From an uncultured Elusimicrobia bacterium (GTDB lineage Bacteria > Elusimicrobiota > Endomicrobiia > Endomicrobiales > CAIRNS01): a stretch of DNA of 64,000 nt. This document shows positions 5,759-26,906 of the stretch, piece by piece. The stretch is taken from assembly GCA_903880015.1 (NCBI GenBank), contig CAIRNS010000022.1:5544-69543 (forward strand), written 5' to 3'. The position numbers and the translations under genes were made by a program. The notes beneath the pieces were generated by a model. That model saw nothing but the letters and a program-made list of their open reading frames with translations, did no database searches and was not told the origin of the DNA. Within the stretch, counting starts at the first letter, position 1. Each line of letters starts with the position of its first letter.

Positions 5759-6487
5759 CTATCCTTTTTTTAGATTGATGCATGTGTTCATCTCGCGAAC
5801 AGCTGACGACAATCCGACAAACAGCGCACGGGCAATGATAGAAAAACCAATATTCAATTCACACATACCGGCAATACGGGCTACAGGCCCCGCATTGGTA
5901 TAGTCCAGTCCGTGCCCGGCATTTAAAATGAGTCCTTTTTTTTGAGCGAATGCAGCCGCCCGGACAAGTTTTTTGAGTTCCTGTTCCCGTCGCGAACGCA
6001 CCGAAAAAGCATGTGCATACGCGCCGGTATGGAGTTCCACGCAATCAGCCCCTGCCGCAGCTGCCGCAGCGATCTGGCGGGTGTTAGGATCGATAAAAAT
6101 ACTGACGCAAATCCCTGCTTGTTTCAAACAACGGACAATAGCGGTAATTTTCTTACTATTTCCGGCAACATCCAAACCGCCTTCTGTCGTCAACTCGCGG
6201 CGTTTTTCCGGGACCAGACAAACATCATCCGGCCCAATCCTGACCGCTATATCCGCTAGCGCATCAATCGCTGCCATTTCAAGATTTAGTTTAGTAGTGA
6301 TGGCTTGGCGCAGGCGCACCACATCGTCGAGCTGAATATGGCGGCGATCCTCGCGCAAATGAACCGTGATGCCCCGTGCACCCGCTTTCTCACACACCAG
6401 AGCGGCAGTGACCGTATCGGGCACCCCGATCATCCGTGCCTGGCGCAGGGTTGCGACATGATCGATATTAACACCGAGATTTACCAT
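5759..6487 (-). CDS. pdxJ: Pyridoxine 5'-phosphate synthase
   Basis: 242 aa. Motifs: [24 protein letters not shown]. Confidence 0.93.
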
Positions 6488-6489
6488 GA

Positions 6490-7848
6490 TTACGCCTTTC
6501 CCAATTCCATCAGAGCGGTCGCGGCAATGGTACGCGCCATCGCGGTGATAGCGTCTTTATCTTTTCCCTCTATCATGACCCGGATAAGATTCTCTGTCCC
6601 TGAATAACGCACCAGAACCCGTCCTTCCCTGCCGAGCTGCTTTTCAGCGCTCTGCACCGCATTGAGCGTTTTGGGAAGCTGTTCAAGAGGTATTTTATGC
6701 GCAACTCGTTCATTTATCAGCACCTGAGGAAATTTATCCATGGATTGCGCGAGCTCTGAAAACGATTTCCCCGATGACTTCAATATGGATAATATCTGCA
6801 AAGAGCTTAATATCCCGTCGCCCGTTTGCAGAAAATCAGTAAGAATGATATGACCTGACTGTTCACCCCCGATAATCGCGCCGGTCCGTATCATCTCCTC
6901 GTACACATACCGGTCGCCGACAGAAGTTTGTTTCAGTACGATATCTTCCCGTTCCATCGCCAGCGACAAACCCATGTTCGCCATGACAGTACTCACCAGA
7001 GTATTATTGATTAATCGGCCTGCTTTTTTGAAATGTATCGCCAGGATAGCAAGTAAATAATCGCCATCGCGTACAACACCCGTTTCATCGACAAACATAA
7101 CGCGATCCGCGTCTCCATCATAGGATATACCGCAGGCAGCCCCGTTCGCCGTCACGAGCGCGGATATGTTTCCCGGATGTAAAGCACCGCACGCATCATT
7201 GATATTCCTTCCGGTCGGTTGAGCATTGACAATGATTACATCTGCGCCCAGCTCTTTGAACAGGGCTGGGACCACCGACACGGCAGCGCCATGACCGCAA
7301 TCAACAACAATCCGCATGCCCTGCAAGAAACTTTTACCCGGAACAGTAGATGCCAAAAAAGCACCATAGCGTGCAACCATGTGTTTGCCATCTTTGCGAT
7401 TGATCGTTGAGGGCTGTTCCGTCGACGATAATGAATGTTCTATTTCTTGTTCAACCGCATCGGGAAGCTTCGTCCCGGCGTGACTGAAAAATTTTATCCC
7501 ATTATCATCGTAAGGATTGTGGGATGCCGATATAACCACCCCGGCGACCGCTCTACCCATTTTTGTCAGATAGGCAACACCCGGGGTCGTAATAATACCG
7601 CAGTCAACAACCGTCATGCCGCCGCGTGAAAGCCCGGCGATAAGCGATTCACGAATGGACGGACCTGATTCGCGCGTATCCATGCCCAGCATAATAAGGG
7701 GATCAAGACCGGGCGCAAGATGCTTTATAAAAACCCTCGCCGCCGCAAAACCTATCTGCATGACCGTTGCTGAATCGAGAGGGTACTGTCCCGCTTTTCC
7801 CCGCACGCCGTCAGTGCCGAACATTTTTCTTGTTTTGTTTATTGTCAT
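6490..7848 (-). CDS. glmM: Phosphoglucosamine mutase
   Basis: Motifs FGTDGVRG and the phosphoserine loop SASHNP. The track start (7899) is a TTG. The ATG at 7846-7848 gives the canonical N-terminus [17 protein letters not shown]. Confidence 0.93.
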
Positions 7849-8115
7849 AATTTTACCAATCCGTCTCAATCTTGATGTCTTAGCGAAAATACCGATCAAT
7901 CATTGCCGAGATAGTAAGCAAAGACCAGCAAGAAGGAATCTTAACCATTAACCCGATGTAATATGCGGAGATGCGGGCTTACCACAGGAAAATTGGAATT
8001 AACAGCATGCATGAATCTTAGCTGAAATGGATGACGTAGAACCACAGAATGATTGCCAACAACACAGCTATGATCCGCAAATTCCAATTCGTTTTCCATC
8101 CGTTCCATTTTCTCA

Positions 8116-16065: not shown

Positions 16066-16126
16066 AATTCCTCAATACCGACACATCCCATTTCGCCTTC
16101 AGCTGCTGTCATAAAACTCTGTGTAA

Positions 16127-16212
<86 letters not shown>

Positions 16213-16230
16213 AGGTGTCAAATTCATTTT

Positions 16231-16259
16231 ATTTTACAACAATTTTTTGGTTTCGTCAA
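16231..16259 (-). promoter_or_regulatory. sigma70-type promoter for tRNA-Leu
   Basis: Minus strand: TTGACG (16254-16259), N17, TAAAAT (16231-16236), 18 nt upstream of the tRNA 5' end. Confidence 0.5.
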
Positions 16260-16299
16260 AAGTGGCTTACGCTGAATATAATATTGTGATGAATGGGAA

Positions 16300-18675
16300 T
16301 CAAATTGGATTTAATATTTCATAAGGCACACGGTTATAAAGTTTCACTAAAGAACATATTTTATCAATACGGCCTGAAAGCAATAATTCTCGATAACGCT
16401 GAATAATCTCACCATTCCATATTATTTCAAAACTACTATTATTTAAATTGCCCACAATATTACCACAATCACAATGTGCTCCCGTTAATACACTACCGTC
16501 AAATCTAACAACTGCTTTTCTCCAAGGCGCAAAACAAGTGTTGCGTTGAGGATTTATGAGCTTCGGTTCAGTTGCATTAATTTCCACAAACTGCTGAGGC
16601 AGTATGTCTTCAGTAACGCGCTGAGCATCGCCCATGTCTACAGAGGAACTGCCTAAAATATATTCGCCGGTAATATTGGTAAAATATTCAATGCCTGAGC
16701 ATTGACAAAGCAATTTAGCTTTATCAAGCATGTCGACAATCCTTTTTCGCTCATTATAATCACATGTCAAAATGTTTTCCGGGTGATCTATTCCGCATAT
16801 TATGTACTTGAATTGAATTGCATCAAATTCATGTTTTTTGGCAAATTCCACAAAATCAATGATTTGATGATAATTAGATTTCATGATAACAACAGCCATA
16901 TTCAGCCCATATTTACTACTCAATGACTTGCGTGCATGTTTAATTATGTTGATTGAATTAAGCATATCCTCAAATCGAGCGCCGCGACGAATAGATTCAT
17001 ATATGTCCTTTGTCGCGCCATCAATTGAAATTTCAAGTTCCACATTGTTTTCAATCAACTTGCGAGCAATTCGATCATCGATTAACAACCCGTTTGTTGT
17101 CACTTTTTGCTTGATGCCGTATTTCCCCGCGGCAACAAACAATTCTTCAAATCCGTCATAAAGGAAAACTTCTCCTCCTAACCAAGAAATATTGTGCAAA
17201 TAAGGCATAATTGCAAGAATTTGCTCTTTCACATAGGGTGATAATTCTACCCCTGTTTTTTTGTCTAAACTACACATAACACATCTTAAGTTGCATTTAG
17301 TAGTAATATGTACATCAATCGAAATCGGCAAAGTAGATATATCGGACCGTCTCTCCCCAATATTACGCTCGCAATCGAGCTGATTACTAATACAATCGGA
17401 CAACGCACAATGGGTCTGCTTGATCCGGCTGATCACAGAAAGCGCGCTATCGTGCCCCCCAACATCATTACAGTAGCGTATAAAATGCAACAAATGCCCA
17501 ATATTATCATGAATGGTTGTAGAATCATTCATGAGAGAAATAATATTTATAGGACTATCATATTTACTCATTGCATTAATTCCAAATCCTTCAGCTAACT
17601 GCTGTAAAGTGTAAACAACCTCAACGCTTTCATCGCTTTGAGGGGTTACTGTATCCATTTCTTGAGCGAATTCGCTCTGCATCAATAATAAATTGCCGAT
17701 TTCTTTGTTCAACTCGACGGATTCCGGATCAATCGCTTGCGCAGCGCGGAACGATAACAATGCTTTTTCATGAAGATTCTCGGCAACATATATTCTGCCA
17801 AGTAGTATGTTATACAATGCTTGTCCGGAAAAACGACTCTTTAAAGACAACAAAAGTAATTTTGCCCTATCACCCAATCCCATATGCAAATAACATTCGG
17901 CAATCTTAAGTTGTATCTCGCCCGGGAATCCTTCCATGTTAGTCGCGGATGAAAATACTGCAAGAGCTTCGGCATAATTGCCCTGCGCCATCTCAATGTC
18001 ACCCAACAACATGCAAGCAAATGATTGATTGTCACCGCAATGCATTCCGGCAGCAATCATTTCGCGAGCCGACACAAAGTCTTGGCTTTGTATGTATATC
18101 TTCGCCAGTTCGAAATACGCTATTGAACATTTTGAATCAATTTGTAAAGCTTTTTTAAAGGCAATCTTTGCATCTTCAATACGATTCTCTCCGCACTCCA
18201 CCAAACCCAGCAAGACATGCCCCAATACGCTGCCGCTTATCTCTATTTCTCGAATTGCCTCGACTCTTCCTTTTTCAAAATCATTCAATTTAATATACGC
18301 TTTACCTATCTCATAATGGAGCTCCGGAGCATTGCCGTCTAATACAACTGCCTTTGTAAATGATGTGATTGCTTTTCTATATTCTGATTGTATTTCATAA
18401 ATCTTCCCTAACAATATATGCGCATACACTATTTTATCATCGATAGCTATTGCTTCAATAAAGAAGTTTTTTGCATTTTCATAATCTTTTTTTAAGTAAA
18501 GTATTTTCCCAATTTCAAAAATACATGCCCCATGCTCCGGGGCTATCCCACGAAGTGTCATAAATATACGCAGAGCTTCTTCAGCATCTCCCGCCTGGAG
18601 CAACTTTTTTCCACTATCCATTAAAGCATCGATTTGACAATTACCCATTATTACAATTCCCTTGAGAAAACACAT
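16300..18675 (-). CDS. TPR-repeat + radical SAM protein with a Cys-poor SPASM/twitch-like C-terminus (paralog A)
   Basis: 791 aa. About 330 aa of TPR, then the radical SAM cluster motif TKCNLRCVMC (CX3CX2C), then the C-terminal CFAPW...HCDCG...IWNG region. An alternative ATG at 18648 (MGNCQ) aligns better with paralog B. Confidence 0.8.
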   Translation of the reverse strand: MCFLKGIVIMGNCQIDALMDSGKKLLQAGDAEEALRIFMTLRGIAPEHGACIFEIGKILYLKKDYENAKNFFIEAIAIDDKIVYAHILLGKIYEIQSEYRKAITSFTKAVVLDGNAPELHYEIGKAYIKLNDFEKGRVEAIREIEISGSVLGHVLLGLVECGENRIEDAKIAFKKALQIDSKCSIAYFELAKIYIQSQDFVSAREMIAAGMHCGDNQSFACMLLGDIEMAQGNYAEALAVFSSATNMEGFPGEIQLKIAECYLHMGLGDRAKLLLLSLKSRFSGQALYNILLGRIYVAENLHEKALLSFRAAQAIDPESVELNKEIGNLLLMQSEFAQEMDTVTPQSDESVEVVYTLQQLAEGFGINAMSKYDSPINIISLMNDSTTIHDNIGHLLHFIRYCNDVGGHDSALSVISRIKQTHCALSDCISNQLDCERNIGERRSDISTLPISIDVHITTKCNLRCVMCSLDKKTGVELSPYVKEQILAIMPYLHNISWLGGEVFLYDGFEELFVAAGKYGIKQKVTTNGLLIDDRIARKLIENNVELEISIDGATKDIYESIRRGARFEDMLNSINIIKHARKSLSSKYGLNMAVVIMKSNYHQIIDFVEFAKKHEFDAIQFKYIICGIDHPENILTCDYNERKRIVDMLDKAKLLCQCSGIEYFTNITGEYILGSSSVDMGDAQRVTEDILPQQFVEINATEPKLINPQRNTCFAPWRKAVVRFDGSVLTGAHCDCGNIVGNLNNSSFEIIWNGEIIQRYRELLLSGRIDKICSLVKLYNRVPYEILNPI

Positions 18676-18863
18676 TCATAAAATTGGTGGCTAAAAATAC
18701 TACAGCATTCACTGTGCAATCTGCTTAATGCAATCAAGTAACCGTGCGGGCTTATGCTGAAACTGTGTGAACTGAACAAAACCATGCGTCATTTTATTGC
18801 TTCTTTTCACAGAATTAAATTTAAGCACTCATTTTTCCTGTTCATGGAGTTAAATAATTGCAA

Positions 18864-20660
18864 TTAAAAATCATTCAATAATTCAAAAGGGACTCGGTTG
18901 TATTGTGGCACCAATAAACATATTTTACTGATATCCCCAGAGAGCAAAAGTGTTCTGTAGCGAAGCATTTTGGCACCGTTCCAGATCTCCCCAAAACCAC
19001 TTTCCAAAAGGTTCCCGACAACAATGCCACAATCACAATGCGCCATTACACTAATAGCGCCATTATATCTAATGCTTGCATTTCTCCACGGTGCAAAACA
19101 CATATTGATCTGAGGATCAACGGGATCTTGGGGATGCGTTTGAGGACCCATTCCTTCAGGCAAACCTATTGGAATCTCTTGATTATCAAAAGCCCGGCTG
19201 AAGATAAATGCACGTGTGATATTGGTATAAAATGATATTTCAATGCCATGACACAGCAATTTTGCTTCTTCAAGCATGTCAATAATATTTTGACGGACAT
19301 CGTAATCACAGGAAAGCAAATCTTCCGGATCATCAAACCGAAAACACTGTATATGCACAAATCGTATCCCTATAAACCCATGAGAGAGTGCGAATTGAAC
19401 AAAGTCAGGAATCTGTTGATAATTGGATTTCATAATAACAACAACCATCTTGAGCCCATATGTCTTGTCCATGCGTTTTTTCATTTGATTAATCAAGTTG
19501 ATTGAACTGAGCAAATTCTCAAATCGGGCACCACGGCGAATATACTCATATATTTCCTTTGTTGCCCCATCAATTGAAATTTCAAGAATTATGTTGTTTT
19601 CTATTAATATTTGTGCCATATGCTCATCAATCAACAAACCATTGGATGTTATGCTTTGTTTTATTCCGTATTTCGCCGCCGTAACCATGAGCTCCTCAAA
19701 TCCGTCATATAAAAATACTTCTCCGCCTAACCAAGTCACTTCACTCAAAAAGGGAAATATTGAAAGTATTTCTTTCTTCATATGCGGAGATATTTCCTCA
19801 ACAATATTCTTATCCTGGCCACACATGCGACATCTCAAATTGCACCTGGTAGTAATATGCACTAAAAGCGCAACTGGGAATGATGTTATTTCTGATCGCC
19901 CCTCCGCTATATTCGTTTCACAAAGGATTTGATTATTTATAGCATCTGAAAATTTTCCCTTGCATTGATTAATCAGTTTAATCATTACAAGAGCAACCTT
20001 ATGGCTCCCCACATCATTGCAATATCGCGCGAAACGAAGCACAAGCTGAACATTAGCTGCAATGCGCAATGGGTCAAGAATAAGCAAATCAATACAACTC
20101 CGATTAAGAAAATCCTTAGCCATCATATGGTCAAAAGCGGCAGACAACTGCCGTAAAGTATACAATACACCATTTGACTCAGCATCTTGAGACACAGCAT
20201 AAACTATATCTTGCTGAAATTGGCCTTGCAAATATAATACATTTGCAATTTCTTGCTGTATCTCGCCGCTCTCGAGCTTAACTTTCTCAGATTTGCTCCT
20301 CATTAATAATATATTGCCCATTTCCGCCTGTATATGAACGCTCGCCGGGTCTATCTTTTCTGCCGCACGCAATGCCTGTAATGCATCCCCATAGTCGTCC
20401 CGTTTCGCATAAATCTTGCCTAATAGTATGTGCGCATGGACAAGCCCTTTCTCAGCAACTATGGCCTTGTTTAAACACTCTTCCGCTTCTCCATATTCTT
20501 TCCGCATGTAATGTATTTTCCCTATTTCGAAAAGACATTCCCCGTTATCAGGAAAACGCTTATACAATGACTTGAAAATACACAGAGCCCCTTCTGCATC
20601 ACCTGCCTGCAGAAGCGTCTTGCCTTTTTCAATCATCATTTCTGTCGACATATCGTTCAT
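18864..20660 (-). CDS. TPR-repeat + radical SAM protein with a SPASM/twitch-like C-terminus (paralog B)
   Basis: 598 aa. Motif TRCNLRCRMC, with long identical runs shared with paralog A (WLGGEVFLYDGFEEL, LEISIDGATKEIYE, CFAPWR). It has a shorter TPR array than A. Confidence 0.8.
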   Translation of the reverse strand: MNDMSTEMMIEKGKTLLQAGDAEGALCIFKSLYKRFPDNGECLFEIGKIHYMRKEYGEAEECLNKAIVAEKGLVHAHILLGKIYAKRDDYGDALQALRAAEKIDPASVHIQAEMGNILLMRSKSEKVKLESGEIQQEIANVLYLQGQFQQDIVYAVSQDAESNGVLYTLRQLSAAFDHMMAKDFLNRSCIDLLILDPLRIAANVQLVLRFARYCNDVGSHKVALVMIKLINQCKGKFSDAINNQILCETNIAEGRSEITSFPVALLVHITTRCNLRCRMCGQDKNIVEEISPHMKKEILSIFPFLSEVTWLGGEVFLYDGFEELMVTAAKYGIKQSITSNGLLIDEHMAQILIENNIILEISIDGATKEIYEYIRRGARFENLLSSINLINQMKKRMDKTYGLKMVVVIMKSNYQQIPDFVQFALSHGFIGIRFVHIQCFRFDDPEDLLSCDYDVRQNIIDMLEEAKLLCHGIEISFYTNITRAFIFSRAFDNQEIPIGLPEGMGPQTHPQDPVDPQINMCFAPWRNASIRYNGAISVMAHCDCGIVVGNLLESGFGEIWNGAKMLRYRTLLLSGDISKICLLVPQYNRVPFELLNDF

Positions 20661-21015
20661 AATCGTAGGTGGCTAACCAAAATTGTATACATTACTGTCA
20701 AACTGCAACTTTACACCATCGAGCACATAGGTACTCATATTTTTTATTATACAATATTTCGCTAAAAGGAGGGGAGCGAAAAAACAAAAGAGAATAATAT
20801 GAAAGGATGTATAGGGCAATGTGCTGCTTCATGGATATCTATAGAACTTGACATGATCGTTCGCAACAGCAATGGTGTGCTCAGCTTGAAATTTTACCAG
20901 TAAAGTGATATGTGTCAAGGGATGTTACGCTGGAAGCAATGACTGGAGGAAGGGCGAAAAATGAAAGCTGAAAGATAGCTTAACTTATGCTAAATTCTTC
21001 CTATGAAATATATTT

Positions 21016-21897
21016 CTAAAATTCAAAGAAACTACCGACGCTTGCTCGGAGGTCGTCGTAGCCGTCTTTCATGGTTATACATTGCGCGCCACCCATCAGA
21101 CCCATGCGTGCGGTAAGCCAGTGACGATGGCGGAGATCGAACGAATCAACATTATTTCTCACCTCTTGTGATGGGAAAACCGTAGTTGCGGTATAGCCGG
21201 TAATGCCGTGTGATATCGTCAGATATGTCCACTGTTTTCCTTCGGCGCCAACCGCTGCCGAGAGCTGATGCGAATAGGTAACCACGCTGCCCGGTTCGCT
21301 TTTATTTTGAAATATCCGGTACCCGCACAACCAGCCGGCGCCATAATATGTGCCGGCAGCCGACAGCAAGAGGTCCTCGTACGGGATGTGGTAGGTTATA
21401 TAACTTACACCGAGTGTCGCAACAATATTTTTGACATGACCCAACTTTACATTGAAATCCGTATCGAGACGGAGTTTTGGCAAATAATCAACGACTGTTC
21501 CTGCTGAAATAGACGAATAAGTATACACCCGTGGAGACCAGTCCCGGTAGCCGCCAATCCCCCCCTGTACCCCATCGCCTTCCTGACGCCTAAACATCCC
21601 CAGCTCGGCAAACCACACAAAGCCCGGCTTATTAAAAGTAAAAAGATCGATGACCACATCTTTCCGGCTGCCGTAAAGAGAATCGGGCGACAGCTGTTCA
21701 TATGAAACCGTCTCCTCAAGCCGGTGAGTCCGGGTAATGAGTCCCTGCACCGCTGTCGGCGCGGTGATCGTTAGCCCGGGTTGATTAACCGGAACCTGGA
21801 CACCGTAAACCTGCGACGCATGCAGAAGAATAAGACAGAACATCACTGCCAAGCCGCTGCTCCCGCCCGCCTGAAACATCACGCGCACTTTGTTCAT
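21016..21897 (-). CDS. Outer-membrane beta-barrel protein (last gene of the EPS operon)
   Basis: 293 aa. Signal peptide, alternating aromatic/Gly-rich strands, C-terminal ...GSFFEF (terminal Phe). ATGA overlap with the upstream gene. Confidence 0.6.
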   Translation of the reverse strand: MNKVRVMFQAGGSSGLAVMFCLILLHASQVYGVQVPVNQPGLTITAPTAVQGLITRTHRLEETVSYEQLSPDSLYGSRKDVVIDLFTFNKPGFVWFAELGMFRRQEGDGVQGGIGGYRDWSPRVYTYSSISAGTVVDYLPKLRLDTDFNVKLGHVKNIVATLGVSYITYHIPYEDLLLSAAGTYYGAGWLCGYRIFQNKSEPGSVVTYSHQLSAAVGAEGKQWTYLTISHGITGYTATTVFPSQEVRNNVDSFDLRHRHWLTARMGLMGGAQCITMKDGYDDLRASVGSFFEF

Positions 21898-23726
21898 GAT
21901 CGCCCCTCAATGAGATTGAGTGTAGCAGTTGTAGCCGTTGTCGATATAAAAGTAAGATAGTAATACTCTTCGTCTTCATGAATACTGCCGGCACCGGAAG
22001 GCGGCCGCATGAAGCGGGAACGCGGAATGGCAAGCGTCATATCGAAGATTCCCTCGGGATTTGAAACGATTGCAGTCATCCCCCCAGGGACGCGCGTAAA
22101 GAGGGAGGATGTCCGAATGAAGCGTTGCAAAAATGCCGCAAAATAACTCATGGAGCGAACCCGCACTGACCCTTCGCTTTGACGCCGTTCGGCGTAATCA
22201 AGGAATTCCTTCAATGCACGGGGATAATCGTACATGTCGTAGGGATGGGAATAGAACAGGCGCACCGTACGATGATCGACGATGTAATCGACAATCCCGC
22301 GCAGCCATGCCGCAACTTCGGGTTCTGGTACACCCGTCACCTTCATTTCATGCAGAGAAGCTTCTTTGCCAAACGGCAGAATGGGAAAAGCAATGACGCT
22401 GGTGGACACCATAACGCCATTGATAAAAGTCCGATTCGGGGAGGACCCGCAGTCCCCGGTATAGTAATATGAGCCCATGCCCAAGCGCTCCAACACCCTG
22501 GTCAGGATTGGCTGGGGATGCACTCCCCGCGGCGCTGAATACTCATCAATCTTGGTGCCGGTTATGTGCGACAGCGTCTCGTTATTCTTATTGACGTATT
22601 GCGTAATCTCCTGTTCACTCAAGGTGTTTGACGATAATTGCTCGGCAAACCAGTTGTGAGCCCATCCGCCGTGGGAACCAATGACGCCGTACGGGCGTAG
22701 CATACGGATAAACGGCGCACCTTTGCCGCCCGCATCGAAACCTAACCCGTCACCGGGCGCATCTCTAAAATCACCGGCGGTGATATGCAGGGAGTAATCC
22801 ATTCCCTGACGGAGATATTTCCGGTCTATCATTGCCGGAATACTCTTCCAATCGATGCTCGAATCAATGTGCCAGTTAATGACTAGTCCGCCTTGCCCTC
22901 CCGGCGCGTTCAGCATGTGAAGAATTCCTACCGTGCGCAACAGAAAAGAACGCAGGATAACCCGCAACGGCAAATCGTCAGAAAACCCTTTAAGAACCCC
23001 CAGCGAGAGATTGACATACATCACCGAACCTTTCCCTATGGACCGCTGTACCAAGCCGGGAAAGCGTGTGTTGCCTATTTCCGCGTAAGCGTACACATCC
23101 CGGTCTTCCAAACGCGGATCAGCAAGGGTGCGCGCCATAGGATATGTCAGCGAACCGTAGGCGTAGCCGCTCAATAAAACCCCCTGAGACGCTTTGCCGG
23201 GCGGGATTTCAAAAGCCCGGGCACTCGCACTGTCTTTGAATTTGAAATAACCGTCACCGTAGGATTTCTCCCGCAATGCCTGATACTGAAGATAGTTGAC
23301 TTGCACGAGATCGGCGAAGAGTGGCTTCTTGAGAAAATGACCGCGCTGGTCGCGGATACCGGGATCAAAGACCACGAGGGCACGACCACCGGCACGGATG
23401 TATGCTTCAATCCAAAACGCCATATCAGAGGGCAACTTCTGGGAAATCGCATCAGGAAGGATGATCGCCGGCGTCATTTCAACGGCAGCGGCGGGATGGA
23501 ATCCAAGTAGCCAGGGGGCATCCACCAGACGATAGGGAATGCCCTCTTCGCGCAGCACACTCTCATACGCCGAGCGCACATTGCGTTCTCCTTGCGTGGG
23601 ACAGTCCCCGCACACAACGAATACCGAGTAATCTTTCGTCAGGCGGTCTGACCGCCAGAGGATTAATCCACCGTACACACCCAGCGCAATGATAAAAAAG
23701 GTGATGATTATCTTTTGCTTGTTCAT
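21894..23726 (-). CDS. Membrane-anchored periplasmic protein with divergent CE4/NodB-like (polysaccharide deacetylase) motifs
   Basis: 610 aa. N-terminal TM, then ordered INWHIDS, IGSHGGWAHNWF and RLFYSHPYD, which resemble the Asp / His-His / His motifs of CE4 enzymes. The assignment is tentative. Confidence 0.4.
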   Translation of the reverse strand: MNKQKIIITFFIIALGVYGGLILWRSDRLTKDYSVFVVCGDCPTQGERNVRSAYESVLREEGIPYRLVDAPWLLGFHPAAAVEMTPAIILPDAISQKLPSDMAFWIEAYIRAGGRALVVFDPGIRDQRGHFLKKPLFADLVQVNYLQYQALREKSYGDGYFKFKDSASARAFEIPPGKASQGVLLSGYAYGSLTYPMARTLADPRLEDRDVYAYAEIGNTRFPGLVQRSIGKGSVMYVNLSLGVLKGFSDDLPLRVILRSFLLRTVGILHMLNAPGGQGGLVINWHIDSSIDWKSIPAMIDRKYLRQGMDYSLHITAGDFRDAPGDGLGFDAGGKGAPFIRMLRPYGVIGSHGGWAHNWFAEQLSSNTLSEQEITQYVNKNNETLSHITGTKIDEYSAPRGVHPQPILTRVLERLGMGSYYYTGDCGSSPNRTFINGVMVSTSVIAFPILPFGKEASLHEMKVTGVPEPEVAAWLRGIVDYIVDHRTVRLFYSHPYDMYDYPRALKEFLDYAERRQSEGSVRVRSMSYFAAFLQRFIRTSSLFTRVPGGMTAIVSNPEGIFDMTLAIPRSRFMRPPSGAGSIHEDEEYYYLTFISTTATTATLNLIEGRS

Positions 23727-24901
23727 GGAATAACTTCCCCATCTCTCTCAGAAAACGCCGTGCCGTATATAATCACTCCCCCCGAAAGAAAAAGCTTATC
23801 TTTTCCGATTACTGAACGCACGGAACCGGGTTCGCCGACAATGGTGCCCGACCCAAGAAGGATTTGATGCTGCGAAAAGATATCCCCCCCTATTCGGCAG
23901 TCCTGCGCAGTCAGCACACCGGATTCGGCAAATATGCTTCCTTCAACAACGGCTCCTGCCTCCAACCCAACCGTTCCGCTCGCAGTAATGCTGCCTCGTA
24001 CGCGGCTGCCGGCACCGACGACAATATTGGTCTTTGCAATGATGTCTTTCTCTACGGTCACCCCCGGAGGCAACGAAAAACCATCGCGGTTGATGTACCA
24101 GGCATGTGAACGGATATCACCGCCGGGTACAATGGCCGGCCGTTCAGAATGAGACGGAGCGATCTGTATGGGCGCTCCTGACAGGGATTTGAAAAGGCAT
24201 CCTTGCCCCAACAAAAGAGTTTTTCCGCTCACTACCTGCACACCCAGAATGCACTCATCCCCCGCGGTAATATCACCATCGGCTCCCGCCCATCGAGAGA
24301 GAGAAGCCCGCCGCCCCAGGGTAAGCGATCCTCTCACCGATATAGCGCGCAGCAAGGTGTCGTGACCCAACTGAGCGGACCCGGCTACGATCAATTCTTT
24401 TTCAAAAACTATGCCAACTCCTGTTTCAATATCGCCGTTAACATACACGATAGTTTCAAATGTCCGCGGATCCATTACGCGCCGGGCACCACTAACCTCT
24501 ATCTTTTCCGTTTTTGAGAGCATCACCACCCGCACATCAGATATCGTCACATCGCCGATTACAGGGCACAGCTTTTCCAGAAAAGCGCGCTCGAAATACC
24601 GAAACTCCTTGGTATACTCCATATCAACGGTTTGCGCCTGTATATCCCGGGGATGGAGTAATTCCCGGATGGCCGCGTAAAATGGCAGTACTATCATGGC
24701 TGCCATGACCAGTACCAGTAACCAAAACAGCTCAGGAACGGTGAAAATATATTGCATAAACTGCAAGAATTTCTCATGGAAGGGCAGCATCTGAGAAGGT
24801 TCTCCATCAGCGGCTATAACACGGGGAACAATAATCGCGAGAAACAGCAGAAATCCTGCTCCAGCCGTTATGATTTTCGGAAGCGTTCTGTTTTTTGCCA
24901 T
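23723..24901 (-). CDS. Membrane-anchored bactofilin-like / beta-helix repeat protein
   Basis: 392 aa with two N-terminal TM helices. These are followed by long runs of short G/V/I-rich repeats (GSITASGTVGLEAGAVVEGSIFAESGVLTA...) typical of polymer-forming bactofilin-like beta-helices. Confidence 0.5.
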   Translation of the reverse strand: MAKNRTLPKIITAGAGFLLFLAIIVPRVIAADGEPSQMLPFHEKFLQFMQYIFTVPELFWLLVLVMAAMIVLPFYAAIRELLHPRDIQAQTVDMEYTKEFRYFERAFLEKLCPVIGDVTISDVRVVMLSKTEKIEVSGARRVMDPRTFETIVYVNGDIETGVGIVFEKELIVAGSAQLGHDTLLRAISVRGSLTLGRRASLSRWAGADGDITAGDECILGVQVVSGKTLLLGQGCLFKSLSGAPIQIAPSHSERPAIVPGGDIRSHAWYINRDGFSLPPGVTVEKDIIAKTNIVVGAGSRVRGSITASGTVGLEAGAVVEGSIFAESGVLTAQDCRIGGDIFSQHQILLGSGTIVGEPGSVRSVIGKDKLFLSGGVIIYGTAFSERDGEVIP

Positions 24902-26124
24902 AGACCCGTCCTTCCAAATAGTATATCGATAATTGCGTCAAATGAGCCGTGCGCCGTGTAGAGCATGTTGAAAAGAAAATTAAACAGTACAAATGGCAGC
25001 AAACGAATGCGATCGGTAAATCCATCCAGAAACGATGCCGTCCCCACCTGATAGAACGGTGCGAAATTCCCAAATATATTAAACATTGCGACCGCTAAAA
25101 AAATAAACATGCTGTCCAAAAGGCGAACCTGGTCAAGAAAAAAGAGTGTTACCGCGTCAGCGATGCCTACCATGAGCAACAACGGCACCAAATAAATAAA
25201 CAACAACAGAACACCGTCGAATTTAGTCACAGGGGATAAGTACGCTGAGCGCAGCATCGCGCCCATATAGCGAAACATGACCTGACAATGCCCCCGTGCC
25301 CAGCGGCGGATCTGCCGGCCCCGGACATCCCAATCCTCCGGCACTTCTTCATAACACTCTATTCGGTTATTATAAAGCACCTGCCACCCGTTTATCAGCA
25401 GCCGGAATGTGAGCTCTGTATCCTCAGTCAAACTGTCCGGACTAAATCCTCCCAGTTCCCGCACTATATCTTTGCGGAATCCGCCAACCGTCCCGCCGAA
25501 CTGAGGTATCAAGTGCATGTTCTGACGCGCCTGCTGATCAACCTGGTACCCGGCGGAACGTTCAAGCGCGAGCAGTTTCGTTAAGAGATTCGTCTGTGCG
25601 TTCTCAGGGATGACTCTGCCCATCACCGCACCGACAACCGGATTCTTAAAACACACCGCGAGCGAACGCACAATGCCCTGCGGTGGAAGATAATCCGCGT
25701 CGAACAAAATGATGATATCCCCCCGCGCCCGAATCAGCGCCTCGTTGAGTGCCGCCGATTTTCCCCGTCGGCCGGAAGACCGGTGCAGCGGACGAATGTA
25801 CGGAAACTTTGCCGCATACTGGTCAAGTATCGCCACCGTCCCATCCGTCGAATGATCATTGATCGGAATAACTTCAAATAAAGATTGAGGATAATCAATG
25901 ACCGACAGAAGATCCAAAATATTCCGGGCGACTTTCTCCTCGTTGTGCATGGGTACCATCACGGTCACCGAGGGAAGATCGGAATCCATTATATCAGGAT
26001 AATGTGTGTATTGAATACCTGAAAGCCGGTTCATACTGAATATAAGATGACGCAGGATATAGATGAGTATCACAACGATGAGGAAAACCATGTACGCTCT
26101 GAGAAGAATCAGGAGCATTGCCAT
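24868..26124 (-). CDS. Processive family-2 glycosyltransferase (PgaC/IcaA/cellulose-synthase-like)
   Basis: 418 aa. Motifs VMVPMHNEE, DHSTDGT, FDADY (DxD), TEDTEL, QIRRWARG (QxxRW). TM helices flank the catalytic domain. Confidence 0.85.
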   Translation of the reverse strand: MAMLLILLRAYMVFLIVVILIYILRHLIFSMNRLSGIQYTHYPDIMDSDLPSVTVMVPMHNEEKVARNILDLLSVIDYPQSLFEVIPINDHSTDGTVAILDQYAAKFPYIRPLHRSSGRRGKSAALNEALIRARGDIIILFDADYLPPQGIVRSLAVCFKNPVVGAVMGRVIPENAQTNLLTKLLALERSAGYQVDQQARQNMHLIPQFGGTVGGFRKDIVRELGGFSPDSLTEDTELTFRLLINGWQVLYNNRIECYEEVPEDWDVRGRQIRRWARGHCQVMFRYMGAMLRSAYLSPVTKFDGVLLLFIYLVPLLLMVGIADAVTLFFLDQVRLLDSMFIFLAVAMFNIFGNFAPFYQVGTASFLDGFTDRIRLLPFVLFNFLFNMLYTAHGSFDAIIDILFGRTGLWQKTERFRKS

Positions 26125-26906
26125 ATATCTGAATCCTTCCGGTAGCGTTTGGAAACGATGCTCATATAGATCGAATAAATACCCACAATATAGATAGTAT
26201 CCAACGGAGGATCAAAAGCAATGAACATCGGCGCCATATATACATAACTGTAGTGGCCGATGATATATAAAAAAATAACATATCTGGCCAATCCGAATAT
26301 AAGCGAATATAATAGCGCCAGGGCGATTATCCCCATGCGCTCCGCCAGCGAGGATGGCAGCATCAGCAGCGACATGGACAGGATCAGCGGGATAGTACAC
26401 CATATCCCCAGCTCCGTCTTGATATACAAATCGGAGAACCCCTCAATATTGTAGGGAAACCGTTCGGGAGTAAATAGAAAGAACAACGAGGATATCAGCG
26501 TGATGAGAAGAACAAAAGAAACATACACCGAAACTGATCGGGCGATACCGCGCATACTCATCAAGACTACAACGCCGATAATGGACACCAACGAGAGTCC
26601 AACGCAGTACAACGGAGTGGGGTATGATCCCATCAGCACGATGAGCGACAAATTACCGAACAGAGGATAAGGCGTATTAACAACCCCCACACTGTTACCA
26701 AATGATAGGCGTAAAAAATGCTGAGCAGCCGCATTAAAAAAATACAGGATGGTCGGTGTAAGAAAAATGATGAGCGCGACAAAGGGGAGTGACATTGCAA
26801 AAAAATCGAACAACTGACGAGAACGGATCCGTTCGCTCAGTTTTCTGTACGCACGATGACAATACATAATATCTTTGGCAATGGTCATAGTGAGCAAAAA
26901 CTCCAT
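26109..26906 (-). CDS. Polytopic integral membrane protein, first gene of the EPS operon
   Basis: 265 aa with about 7-8 hydrophobic helices. I recognise no catalytic motif. It overlaps the GT2 start by 16 nt. Confidence 0.5.
   Translation of the reverse strand: MEFLLTMTIAKDIMYCHRAYRKLSERIRSRQLFDFFAMSLPFVALIIFLTPTILYFFNAAAQHFLRLSFGNSVGVVNTPYPLFGNLSLIVLMGSYPTPLYCVGLSLVSIIGVVVLMSMRGIARSVSVYVSFVLLITLISSLFFLFTPERFPYNIEGFSDLYIKTELGIWCTIPLILSMSLLMLPSSLAERMGIIALALLYSLIFGLARYVIFLYIIGHYSYVYMAPMFIAFDPPLDTIYIVGIYSIYMSIVSKRYRKDSDIWQCS

Follow-up and report, generated by a model that had tools for sequence, protein, structure and literature searches.

The closest solved relatives of the proteins described here, SkfB (PDB 6efn), SuiB (5v1q), anSME (4k36) and CteB (5why), are radical S-adenosylmethionine (SAM) enzymes with a partial TIM-barrel core, a CX3CX2C motif and a C-terminal domain whose cysteines hold auxiliary clusters. 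In radical SAM enzymes acting on peptides made by ribosomes and then modified post-translationally (RiPPs), the RiPP recognition element (RRE) sits N-terminally. To our knowledge, almost all characterized radical SAM enzymes of the SPASM/twitch branch are linked either with a neighbouring peptide or with a small-molecule pathway that is defined. We analysed a 64 000-nucleotide stretch of DNA from an uncultured Elusimicrobia bacterium (contig CAIRNS010000022.1, positions 5544–69 543, assembly GCA_903880015.1; hereafter the window), in which two adjacent genes, A and B, encode proteins with the same core, CX3CX2C motif and C-terminal cysteines. Identity to the four enzymes above is just 17–20%, with TM-scores of ∼0.5–0.6. 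Unlike them, A and B begin with a tetratricopeptide repeat (TPR) solenoid, and lack an RRE, an adjacent precursor or substrate gene and the full SPASM CX2CX5CX3C block. We propose, with a probability of roughly 0.4, that A and B are TPR-docked radical tailoring enzymes whose substrate is encoded elsewhere and is most likely associated with the cell envelope, and that they do not form a self-contained RiPP cluster. This proposal draws on the architecture and motifs of the pair, the tandem arrays formed by its relatives, the lack of a RiPP signature, the envelope-glycan genes near family members, a homolog in an rfb locus of Brachyspira, the pattern of divergence between A and B, and the foreign base composition of the pair at third codon positions.

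The two genes are co-oriented on the minus strand, 188 bp apart, and both have the Pfam architecture TPR, Radical_SAM (PF04055) and SPASM (PF13186). Their features, in window positions, are:

16300–18675, minus strand: gene A, an open reading frame (ORF) of 791 amino acids (aa), from the ORF list and translation.
17671–18648, minus strand: TPR solenoid at the N-terminus of A, ∼325 aa, ∼190 aa longer than that of B (Pfam TPR matches at residues 26–330).
16786–17337, minus strand: radical SAM core of A (PF04055), with CNLRCVMC at 17272–17295 (residues 461–468).
16354–16536, minus strand: twitch-like region of A, C714...C735xC737...C774 (PF13186 at residues 714–764, model positions 1–53 of 67).
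18864–20660, minus strand: gene B, 598 aa, encoding TPR, helical linker, radical SAM core and twitch-like domain (ORF, translation and Pfam).
20286–20660, minus strand: TPR solenoid at the N-terminus of B, residues 1–125 (Pfam TPR_2, TPR_19 and TPR_16; paired helices in an AlphaFold2 (AF2) model, with a predicted local distance difference test score (pLDDT) >90).
19911–20285, minus strand: linker of B, residues 126–250, partly of low confidence, ending in the family-conserved N..L.E..I helix before the core.
19341–19886, minus strand: radical SAM core of B (PF04055), with CNLRCRMC at 19821–19844 (residues 273–280), a GGE motif and SIDG.
18918–19100, minus strand: twitch-like auxiliary-cluster region of B, C521...C542xC544...C581 (PF13186 at residues 521–569, model positions 1–52 of 67).

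The PF04055 matches score 66.6 bits in A (residues 456–611) and 63.5 bits in B, against a gathering cutoff of 29.5, and the PF13186 matches 27.2 and 28.9 bits against a cutoff of 21.5, with coverage limited to model positions 1–53 of 67. For gene A, the NCBI annotation starts at the ATG at 18648, which is likely the true start; the resulting product of 782 aa is 100% identical to protein P0002. A protein identical to the product of gene B is present in public data (P0001). The AF2 model of B has a mean pLDDT of 80.9, is confident in the TPR, core and twitch regions, and is disordered at residues 127–190 and 491–518. Within the linker, pLDDT falls below 50 at residues 127–190, helices follow at residues 188–252, and N243 and E250 are nearly invariant in the family.

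In an alignment of 28 family members, the invariant residues (numbered as in B) are C273, C277, C280, G312, G313, E314, D364, Y371, E372, R375 and N413 in the core, with Y371, E372 and R375 forming part of a YEYIRRGARFE motif, and C521, P524, W525, C544, W560, N561, R569 and C581 further on. The first cysteine of the CxC pair (C542) is common in most members. The main clade has a terminal CxxxC; A, B and their relatives P0003–P0006 have instead an extra cysteine just before the twitch region (C470 in B, C657 in A). The C-terminal cysteines of the family consensus amount at most to C..PW, CxC and CxxxC, and the seven-cysteine SPASM pattern with CX2CX5CX3C was not found in A or B, whose C-terminal region has only C...CxC...C. 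At least four cysteines in every aligned member (four to five conserved ones in A and B) are candidate ligands for a single auxiliary cluster, and from these we infer that A and B would each carry one auxiliary Fe–S cluster of the twitch type. Judged by their motifs, A and B are intact paralogs that keep the SAM-cluster motifs of AdoMet radical enzymes of the SPASM/twitch branch.

An earlier note on this stretch, written from its letters, had described A and B as tandem, diverged paralogs of 791 and 598 aa. The ORFs bear this out, as does a BLASTP identity of 46% across 594 aa (E = 6e-171; 49.5% in a MAFFT alignment). The peptide runs that it quoted, WLGGEVFLYDGFEEL, NGLLID, LEISIDGATK.IYE.IRRGARFE and CFAPWR...AHCDCG..VGNL...IWNG, were all found in both proteins, as was the CX3CX2C motif, and Pfam agrees that the ∼190 extra aa of A are TPR. 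Its count of about four C-terminal cysteines (C...CxC...C) stands once the further cysteine just upstream is added, and the single twitch-type cluster that it suggested would fit, as the full CX2CX5CX3C block is absent. Its estimate by eye of ∼80% DNA identity was too high: codon-aligned DNA is 60.5% identical overall and 72.5% identical in the best-conserved 85 codons. At third codon positions the two genes are just 43–47% identical, so that their duplication is old. Divergence is greatest in the TPR region (41% protein identity) and the linker (37%), with 61% identity in the core and 60% in the twitch region. Residues 1–131 of B align both to residues 10–140 and to residues 225–332 of A (BLASTP), and the TPR region of A thus appears internally duplicated. 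The note had missed two features treated below, the long tandem arrays of the family and the foreign composition of the pair.

Scans against Pfam, NCBIfam and PADLOC gave only superfamily- or subgroup-level matches above threshold. The best partial profile matches, chiefly over the generic core, were NF033640 (N_Twi_rSAM; 74.5 bits for A and 72.4 for B, cutoff 170), TIGR04317 (W_rSAM_matur; 68–69 bits, cutoff 380) and TIGR04311 (rSAM_Geo_metal; 62–74 bits, cutoff 400). For the maturase families TIGR03942, TIGR04311 and TIGR04317 together, scores were 62–74 bits against cutoffs of 380–400, and no sulfatase, tungsten oxidoreductase or molybdenum oxidoreductase was found in annotated neighbourhoods. 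NF033640, TIGR04317 and TIGR04311 were also among the best matches of array members from other genomes and of radical SAM proteins on a Brachyspira plasmid, both described below; these common top matches indicate that A and B, the array members and the Brachyspira proteins occupy the same region of sequence space. The prokaryotic viperin model NF038283 scored 53–62 bits against a cutoff of 180, and PADLOC pVip models matched the N-terminal two-thirds of the core at 54–72 bits, over model positions 2–170 of 257.

By sequence, SkfB came first among solved radical SAM enzymes (E = 3.6e-10), with SuiB, viperins and anSME behind it. A Foldseek search of the PDB with the AF2 model of B returned SuiB, SkfB, DesII, anSME, CteB, viperin, BlsE and MoaA, with E-values of 1e-12 to 1e-7, TM-scores of ∼0.5–0.7 relative to the target and identities of 12–20%. 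In this search SkfB, SuiB, anSME and CteB had E-values of ∼1e-11 to 1e-9. The ranking places A and B in the SPASM/twitch branch, and does not tell enzymes that act on peptides from those that act on sugars or nucleotides. DesII (8hzv), BlsE (7vob), viperin (5vsl, 6q2p) and MoaA (1tv7) rank comparably (E = 1e-9 to 1e-7), and their substrates, sugars or nucleotides, would suit the envelope-glycan neighbourhoods of the family; however, they have no family-level sequence match to A and B, with NCBIfam scores far below cutoff, and we know of no TPR domain in any of the four.

To delimit the family, a core hidden Markov model (HMM) was built from an alignment of members (A1). A and B match it over its full length at 404 and 401 bits, and array members of other genomes at ∼230–470 bits; A and B also share the N..LNE.EI helix before the core, GGEVF, TNGLLID, YEYIRRGARFE, C..PW and IWN...YR. 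A word-indexed homolog search gave 69 matches, none with an informative name, and an exhaustive search of 1.84 billion proteins (representatives at 50% identity) gave 299 relatives at E = 1e-30 or better, with N-termini of widely varying length and some multi-core fusions. A scan of one genome per species found 61 loci, nearly all in Elusimicrobiota (Elusimicrobia and Endomicrobia), in Omnitrophota, or in metagenome-assembled genomes (MAGs) labelled Planctomycetales or Planctomycetia. Close family relatives were absent from phage records and viral contigs, and plasmids carried only distant ones. The literature on TPR–radical SAM fusions, STM4011 and radical SAM arrays of Omnitrophota and Elusimicrobia yielded no description of the family.

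When all ORFs of the loci were scored with the core HMM, the family typically appeared as long, co-oriented tandem arrays of paralogs with or without TPR, reaching 7–14 per locus examined: 11 each in L010, L018, L012 and L030, 10 in L017, and 7 each in L011, L015 and L033. At least 20 paralogs, including a double-core fusion of 1202 aa, lie on one contig, CAZQEY010000008.1 (L006, L008 and L020). An N-terminal extension of at least 100 aa was present in 58% of 171 family cores, the remaining 42% being bare proteins of ∼350 aa. In a neighbour-joining tree, paralogs grouped by array position across genera and across genomes labelled Elusimicrobiota and Omnitrophota. A block encoding a ∼600-aa TPR–radical SAM protein, a ∼540-aa TPR–radical SAM protein, a ∼355-aa radical SAM protein and a ∼550-aa TPR–radical SAM protein recurs in L037, L010, L017, L018 and L011, is partial in L022, and has counterparts in L012 and L006. 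The grouping by position indicates that the large arrays are old, differentiated gene sets rather than recent amplifications.

The neighbours of family genes are themselves largely radical SAM genes. When 734 neighbour ORFs were clustered, about half fell into a single component, made up of family members, TPR-linked proteins and radical SAM proteins of other kinds. Just upstream of arrays lie STM4011-like small radical SAM genes, a 976-aa triple radical SAM fusion and TPR–radical SAM genes of another type, and B12-binding radical SAM genes come after some arrays. Four such upstream sets (L012 65–7706, L020 1–5164, L037 401–6605 and L013 519–6830) hold four to six small radical SAM genes (266–304 aa) and a TPR–radical SAM gene (433–505 aa), those of L012 and L013 also a ∼975-aa triple fusion; the genes scanned, in L012 and L037, were STM4011-like. 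With these recurring sets beside the arrays, the loci comprise 15–25 genes that are almost wholly radical SAM.

Outside radical SAM, no conserved partner was found, either among the 734 clustered ORFs or in a Pfam census of 80 flanking genes, and no family recurs in more than six loci. The neighbours that do recur are PMT_2 glycosyltransferases of the GT-C fold (6 loci), LptF/LptG (3) and GDSL/SGNH proteins (3); other neighbours of glycan type are a nucleoside-diphosphate-sugar 4,6-dehydratase with a DegT aminotransferase, a polysaccharide deacetylase, and glycosyltransferases of families GT9, GT4 and GT2 in L013. A carbamoyltransferase lies near family genes in two loci. Envelope-glycan neighbours, the carbamoyltransferase included, occur in about a dozen independent loci, and in the window a PgaC-like GT2 gene and a YaiO operon lie directly upstream of the pair. 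A small membrane protein (65–76 aa, ...FLVFYIGP.II.SFIYAGV) was seen beside the carbamoyltransferase gene in two unrelated loci (L005 3449–3679 and L059 5114–5311), and appears to travel with that gene and not with the radical SAM genes.

The marks of a RiPP cluster were sought in the same loci. An all-against-all comparison across more than 60 related loci found no precursor-like small ORF conserved between genomes, and the intergenic small ORFs of the window had no counterparts except on contigs of the same strain. Pfam and NCBIfam scans listed no RRE or PqqD match for A or B. Among the 80 flanking genes, no protease or dedicated exporter was recurrent: ABC_tran was found in 3 of the 80 and no peptidase family recurred. 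Published work on Elusimicrobia describes loci rich in radical SAM genes, for which a cofactor function is proposed (10.1101/765248). A link to those nitrogenase-paralog loci was considered and rejected: they hold B12-binding and HemN_C radical SAM genes in another context, and no nitrogenase-like genes occur among the flanks scanned.

These searches bear on several points of the earlier note. Its statement that no transporter, protease or precursor lies nearby extends to the family, where no precursor-like ORF is conserved in the loci compared and no protease or dedicated exporter recurs among the 80 flanking genes, and classification by HMM, which might have assigned the proteins to a characterized family, gave no family that claims A or B, all NCBIfam scores being far below cutoff. 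The conserved partner or precursor hoped for from the neighbourhoods was not found outside radical SAM, but recurring radical SAM neighbours and tandem arrays were. As to whether the TPR fusion is incidental, it recurs across the family and yet is optional, given the proportion of cores that carry an extension. The step from an N-terminal TPR to a protein or peptide substrate has to be withdrawn, as a TPR arm alone is insufficient to establish such a substrate.

A distant relative outside these phyla was found by tblastn of plasmids, on pBHWA1 of Brachyspira hyodysenteriae, at 139 bits against the family core HMM. The order of genes there (L073 11137–21114) is rfbF, which encodes glucose-1-phosphate cytidylyltransferase, a radical SAM gene, rfbC, an epimerase/dehydratase, a glycosyltransferase and five tandem radical SAM/SPASM genes, and none of the five radical SAM genes scanned reached any NCBIfam cutoff. 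The first radical SAM protein has the N..LN.EE helix before the core and the C..W...C and WNG motifs, and like the family it belongs to a set of tandem radical SAM/SPASM paralogs, here in a glycan (rfb) locus; its sequence suggests a distant member or a sister of the family. Unlike A and B, it has no TPR, is only ∼23% identical, comes from a different phylum and is plasmid-borne. The pBHWA1 block has been correlated with virulence and proposed to act in lipooligosaccharide biosynthesis or glycosylation (PMC4267127).

Within the family, A and B are each other's nearest relatives and belong to a small offshoot clade. Next nearest is the L005 tandem pair (645 and 644 aa, with carbamoyltransferase and PMT_2 genes on its flanks); then come P0004–P0006 and copies from Liberimonas, of which one MAG holds two tandem TPR–radical SAM pairs and one single copy in unrelated contexts. 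Core identity within a genome is 56% in the window, 73% in L005 and 45–58% in Liberimonas, and 35–45% between genomes. Either duplication in this subclade has been lineage-specific and repeated, or gene conversion homogenizes the copies. An ancient two-subunit heterodimer was ruled out on the same ground, since paralogs are closer within one genome than between genomes. One Liberimonas pair (L076 4013–9882) lies directly downstream of an Fe–S assembly and oxidative-stress block (Fur, ferritin, cysteine desulfurase, NifU, DsrE, TusA, flavodiiron protein and desulfoferrodoxin), and a class V aminotransferase gene is found near the L005 pair as well. These neighbours may reflect the Fe–S demand of the enzymes, or coincidence.

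In the window, the composition of the pair sets it apart from its surroundings. The features concerned are:

16250–21000, no strand: low-GC block of 34–43% GC containing A and B, with flanks of ∼50% GC (composition profiles).
16126–16213, minus strand: tRNA-Leu(taa), directly downstream of A, where strain synteny breaks (ARAGORN and Rfam).
20891–20918, minus strand: promoter-like site TTGACA-16-TAAAAT with an extended −10 TG, ∼230 nt upstream of the start of B (pattern match only).

The GC content at third codon positions (GC3) is 0.34 in A and 0.38 in B, versus 0.52–0.58 in the YaiO, 610-aa, GT2, FtsH and TilS genes. The difference of the pair from its neighbours, −0.164, is the extreme among 19 loci, the mean of the other 18 being −0.016. 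We read this deviation as horizontal acquisition of an already duplicated pair, and the pair probably entered the genome in this way. The promoter-like site matches the consensus at 11 of 12 positions, the best match in the region, and from this pattern the pair appears to have its own promoter; an Rfam scan of 14–22 kb for riboswitches gave just two tRNAs. Integration at the tRNA was considered and rejected: no att-like direct repeats surround the low-GC block, and the DNA that varies in the sister strain and the pair are on opposite sides of the tRNA.

The genes around A and B are all on the same strand as the pair. Upstream, at 21016–26906 (minus strand), lies an operon that looks like an uncharacterized synthase-dependent exopolysaccharide secretion system. 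Its five products are a 265-aa protein, a GT2 synthase resembling PgaC (136 bits, under the cutoff), two proteins with 392 and 610 aa, and an outer-membrane beta-barrel of the YaiO family; for three of them, neither Pfam nor NCBIfam gave a match. Beyond it, 7 kb upstream of the pair, overlapping ORFs of 1180 and 2741 aa at 27923–39639 (minus strand) form one 3904-aa protein in the NCBI annotation, the scanned parts of which gave no Pfam or NCBIfam match. Downstream of the pair come tRNA-Leu(taa), a DUF4032-like gene, a metallophosphoesterase, tRNA-Met, an HhH-GPD glycosylase, TilS and FtsH, and further on FolE, FolP, CdaA, GlmM and PdxJ.

The window is 99.95% identical to contig JAPLKM010000008.1 of the Elusimicrobia MAG GCA_026388035.1. 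Two near-identical strain contigs, L002 and L003, cease to match the window at ∼16170–16172, inside tRNA-Leu(taa). L002 ends there, and L003 runs on (6318–7923) into a 205-aa gene with a SocA/Panacea domain and another of 147 aa, which stand in place of the DUF4032-like gene; ARAGORN detects no intact tRNA in L003. Either a hotspot of insertions that vary by strain or a break of the assembly at the tRNA could account for this. Single-nucleotide polymorphisms (SNPs) among four such contigs (L001–L004) cluster in gene B and are mostly non-synonymous, with two synonymous: L169F and L324F in L001 and L002, and D239Y and F380S in L003 and L004, F380 being invariant in an 11-sequence alignment (A2). 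Gene A, at 2.4 kb, has no SNP among the four. The pattern in gene B may reflect relaxed or diversifying selection, on small numbers.

In the mechanism that we propose, the catalytic core would abstract a hydrogen atom from a substrate encoded away from the pair, and the TPR arm would provide docking to a substrate that is a macromolecule, to a carrier or to an assembly machine. After the duplication, divergence of the copies, which is strongest in the TPR and linker, would have given them different targets or successive steps. The target would most likely be a cell-envelope glycoconjugate or an assembly-line component, rather than a locally encoded RiPP peptide. The link to glycans is a lead, which rests on loose neighbourhood recurrence and one distant homolog. 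Several points weigh against the proposal. The glycan association is loose, no single non-radical-SAM neighbour is conserved, and the enrichment is an estimate and not a statistical test; every genome is rich in envelope genes. The usual ligands of TPR domains are proteins or peptides, and the top neighbours by sequence and fold, SkfB, SuiB and anSME, are modifiers of peptides or proteins. The closest relatives are found in mixed surroundings: a lytic transglycosylase and a protease, Fe–S assembly and oxidative-stress genes, a restriction-modification system, Tex, and in one further case a Macro-domain gene with an IS200-type transposase. That the pair adjoins the exopolysaccharide operon may be a chance result of insertion, in view of the break in composition that separates the two. 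Finally, the number of ligands of the auxiliary cluster is read from sequence.

The peptide and protein modifiers named above suggest another reading, in which A and B are maturases like anSME, SkfB and SuiB. They would introduce a crosslink, an oxidation or an epimerization into a protein or peptide whose gene lies elsewhere, such as a surface protein that is secreted or giant, with the TPR in place of the RRE. The best solved relatives by sequence and fold, including CteB, fit such a role, as do the partial matches to NCBIfam families named as metalloenzyme or cofactor-oxidoreductase maturases, the N-terminal location of the TPR, the same as that of the RRE in RiPP enzymes, its faster divergence relative to the core, the stand-alone TPR proteins of some arrays, and the 3904-aa protein encoded 7 kb upstream. 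Yet all maturase-family scores are far below their cutoffs, the more than 60 loci hold no conserved precursor-like ORF, neither A nor B has a listed RRE match, leader proteases and exporters do not recur, 42% of family cores do without a TPR extension, and the fold matches to DesII, BlsE, viperin and MoaA are nearly as good; we regard a maturase role as the main rival, somewhat less likely than our own reading. If the arrays are instead taken as a multi-step pathway in which the TPR serves only for complex assembly, the product could be a small molecule, a cofactor or a lipid, such as a tetrapyrrole, a deazapurine or a membrane lipid. Arrays that consist almost only of radical SAM genes of several subfamilies, B12-dependent ones included, would suit this, and conserved gene order suggests ordered steps; near some loci there are genes for QueC-like and QueE-like proteins and for class V aminotransferases, and radical-SAM-rich loci of proposed cofactor function are already known from Elusimicrobia (10.1101/765248). 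But those published nitrogenase-paralog loci have B12-binding and HemN_C radical SAM genes, with nothing nitrogenase-like among the flanking genes scanned here, no scaffold-forming enzyme is conserved, and the window pair and its closest relatives stand alone, outside radical SAM clusters, so that small-molecule tailoring seems distinctly improbable.

The foreign composition of the pair and its place beside a tRNA where strains differ, with a SocA/Panacea gene there in one of them, raise the question of a conflict system, in which a TPR sensor would be fused to a viperin- or MoaA-like nucleotide-modifying effector on a variable island. Relatives near a restriction-modification system and near the Macro-domain gene with its IS200-type transposase, lineage-specific duplication within the subclade, and the pVip matches to the N-terminal two-thirds of the core (54–72 bits) would be in keeping with an anti-phage role. 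The pVip match is, however, generic radical SAM similarity over model positions 2–170 of 257, the NCBIfam viperin model gives 53–62 bits against 180, and the C-terminal part of viperin is unmatched, A and B having a cysteine-containing twitch-like domain there. Large arrays that keep gene order across labelled phyla point to a stable pathway and not to an arms race, phage records and viral contigs are essentially free of the family, and the seven scanned genes flanking the pair include no other known defence gene. We consider a defence function very unlikely. Still less likely, with only a slight chance of being right, is that the pair is a decaying or redundant remnant of a transferred fragment, in which the TPR fusion and tandem layout have no specific meaning. 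Foreign composition, the lack of a conserved partner gene and the concentration in B of mostly non-synonymous strain SNPs, one of which (F380S) changes a residue invariant in alignment A2, would be expected of a remnant; but both ORFs are intact (598 and 791 codons), all catalytic motifs and invariant family residues are kept in the window copy, gene A has no SNP among four strain contigs, and tandem TPR–radical SAM pairs recur in three other places, once in L005 and twice in a Liberimonas MAG.

The proposal of docked tailoring enzymes can be carried a step further, tentatively and at a strength that we would call less than probable: the pair may be a minimal module, brought in by horizontal transfer, of a radical system of Elusimicrobiota and Omnitrophota that is as yet undescribed and comprises several enzymes, and that would perform serial tailoring of an envelope polymer or its protein carrier. 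In such a system, arrays of 10 to 20 or more TPR–radical SAM/twitch paralogs would act with the STM4011-like and B12-binding radical SAM enzymes, each TPR arm addressing one enzyme to a particular site or assembly step. If so, it would be a glycan- or envelope-directed counterpart of the multi-radical-SAM RiPP pathways.

Among the sources of new chemistry, radical SAM enzymes that have SPASM/twitch domains are a major one. The present clade has neither of the usual handles, an adjacent peptide or a defined small-molecule pathway; it has a TPR docking arm in most members, and its expansion has given rise to tandem radical SAM arrays that rank with the longest among the loci examined, in two poorly understood and largely uncultured phyla. 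Once known, its substrate would reveal either that the envelope of Elusimicrobiota and Omnitrophota undergoes a new modification or that radical enzymes have a new mode of targeting, by TPR instead of RRE. The window pair is a modest example, with value as a compact, intact and self-contained entry point and a convenient target for expression.

For the docking arm, the nearest known designs are O-GlcNAc transferase and SPINDLY, which were matched by Foldseek via the TPR and which, like A and B, place an N-terminal TPR superhelix before a C-terminal catalytic domain. That domain is a glycosyltransferase in those enzymes and a radical SAM domain in A and B, so the likeness is a design analogy for docking only. 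Compared with described systems, the fold and the chemistry class of A and B are known; not described before are their fusion to TPR, the absence of any linked substrate, and arrays of such length in common between genomes labelled as different phyla.

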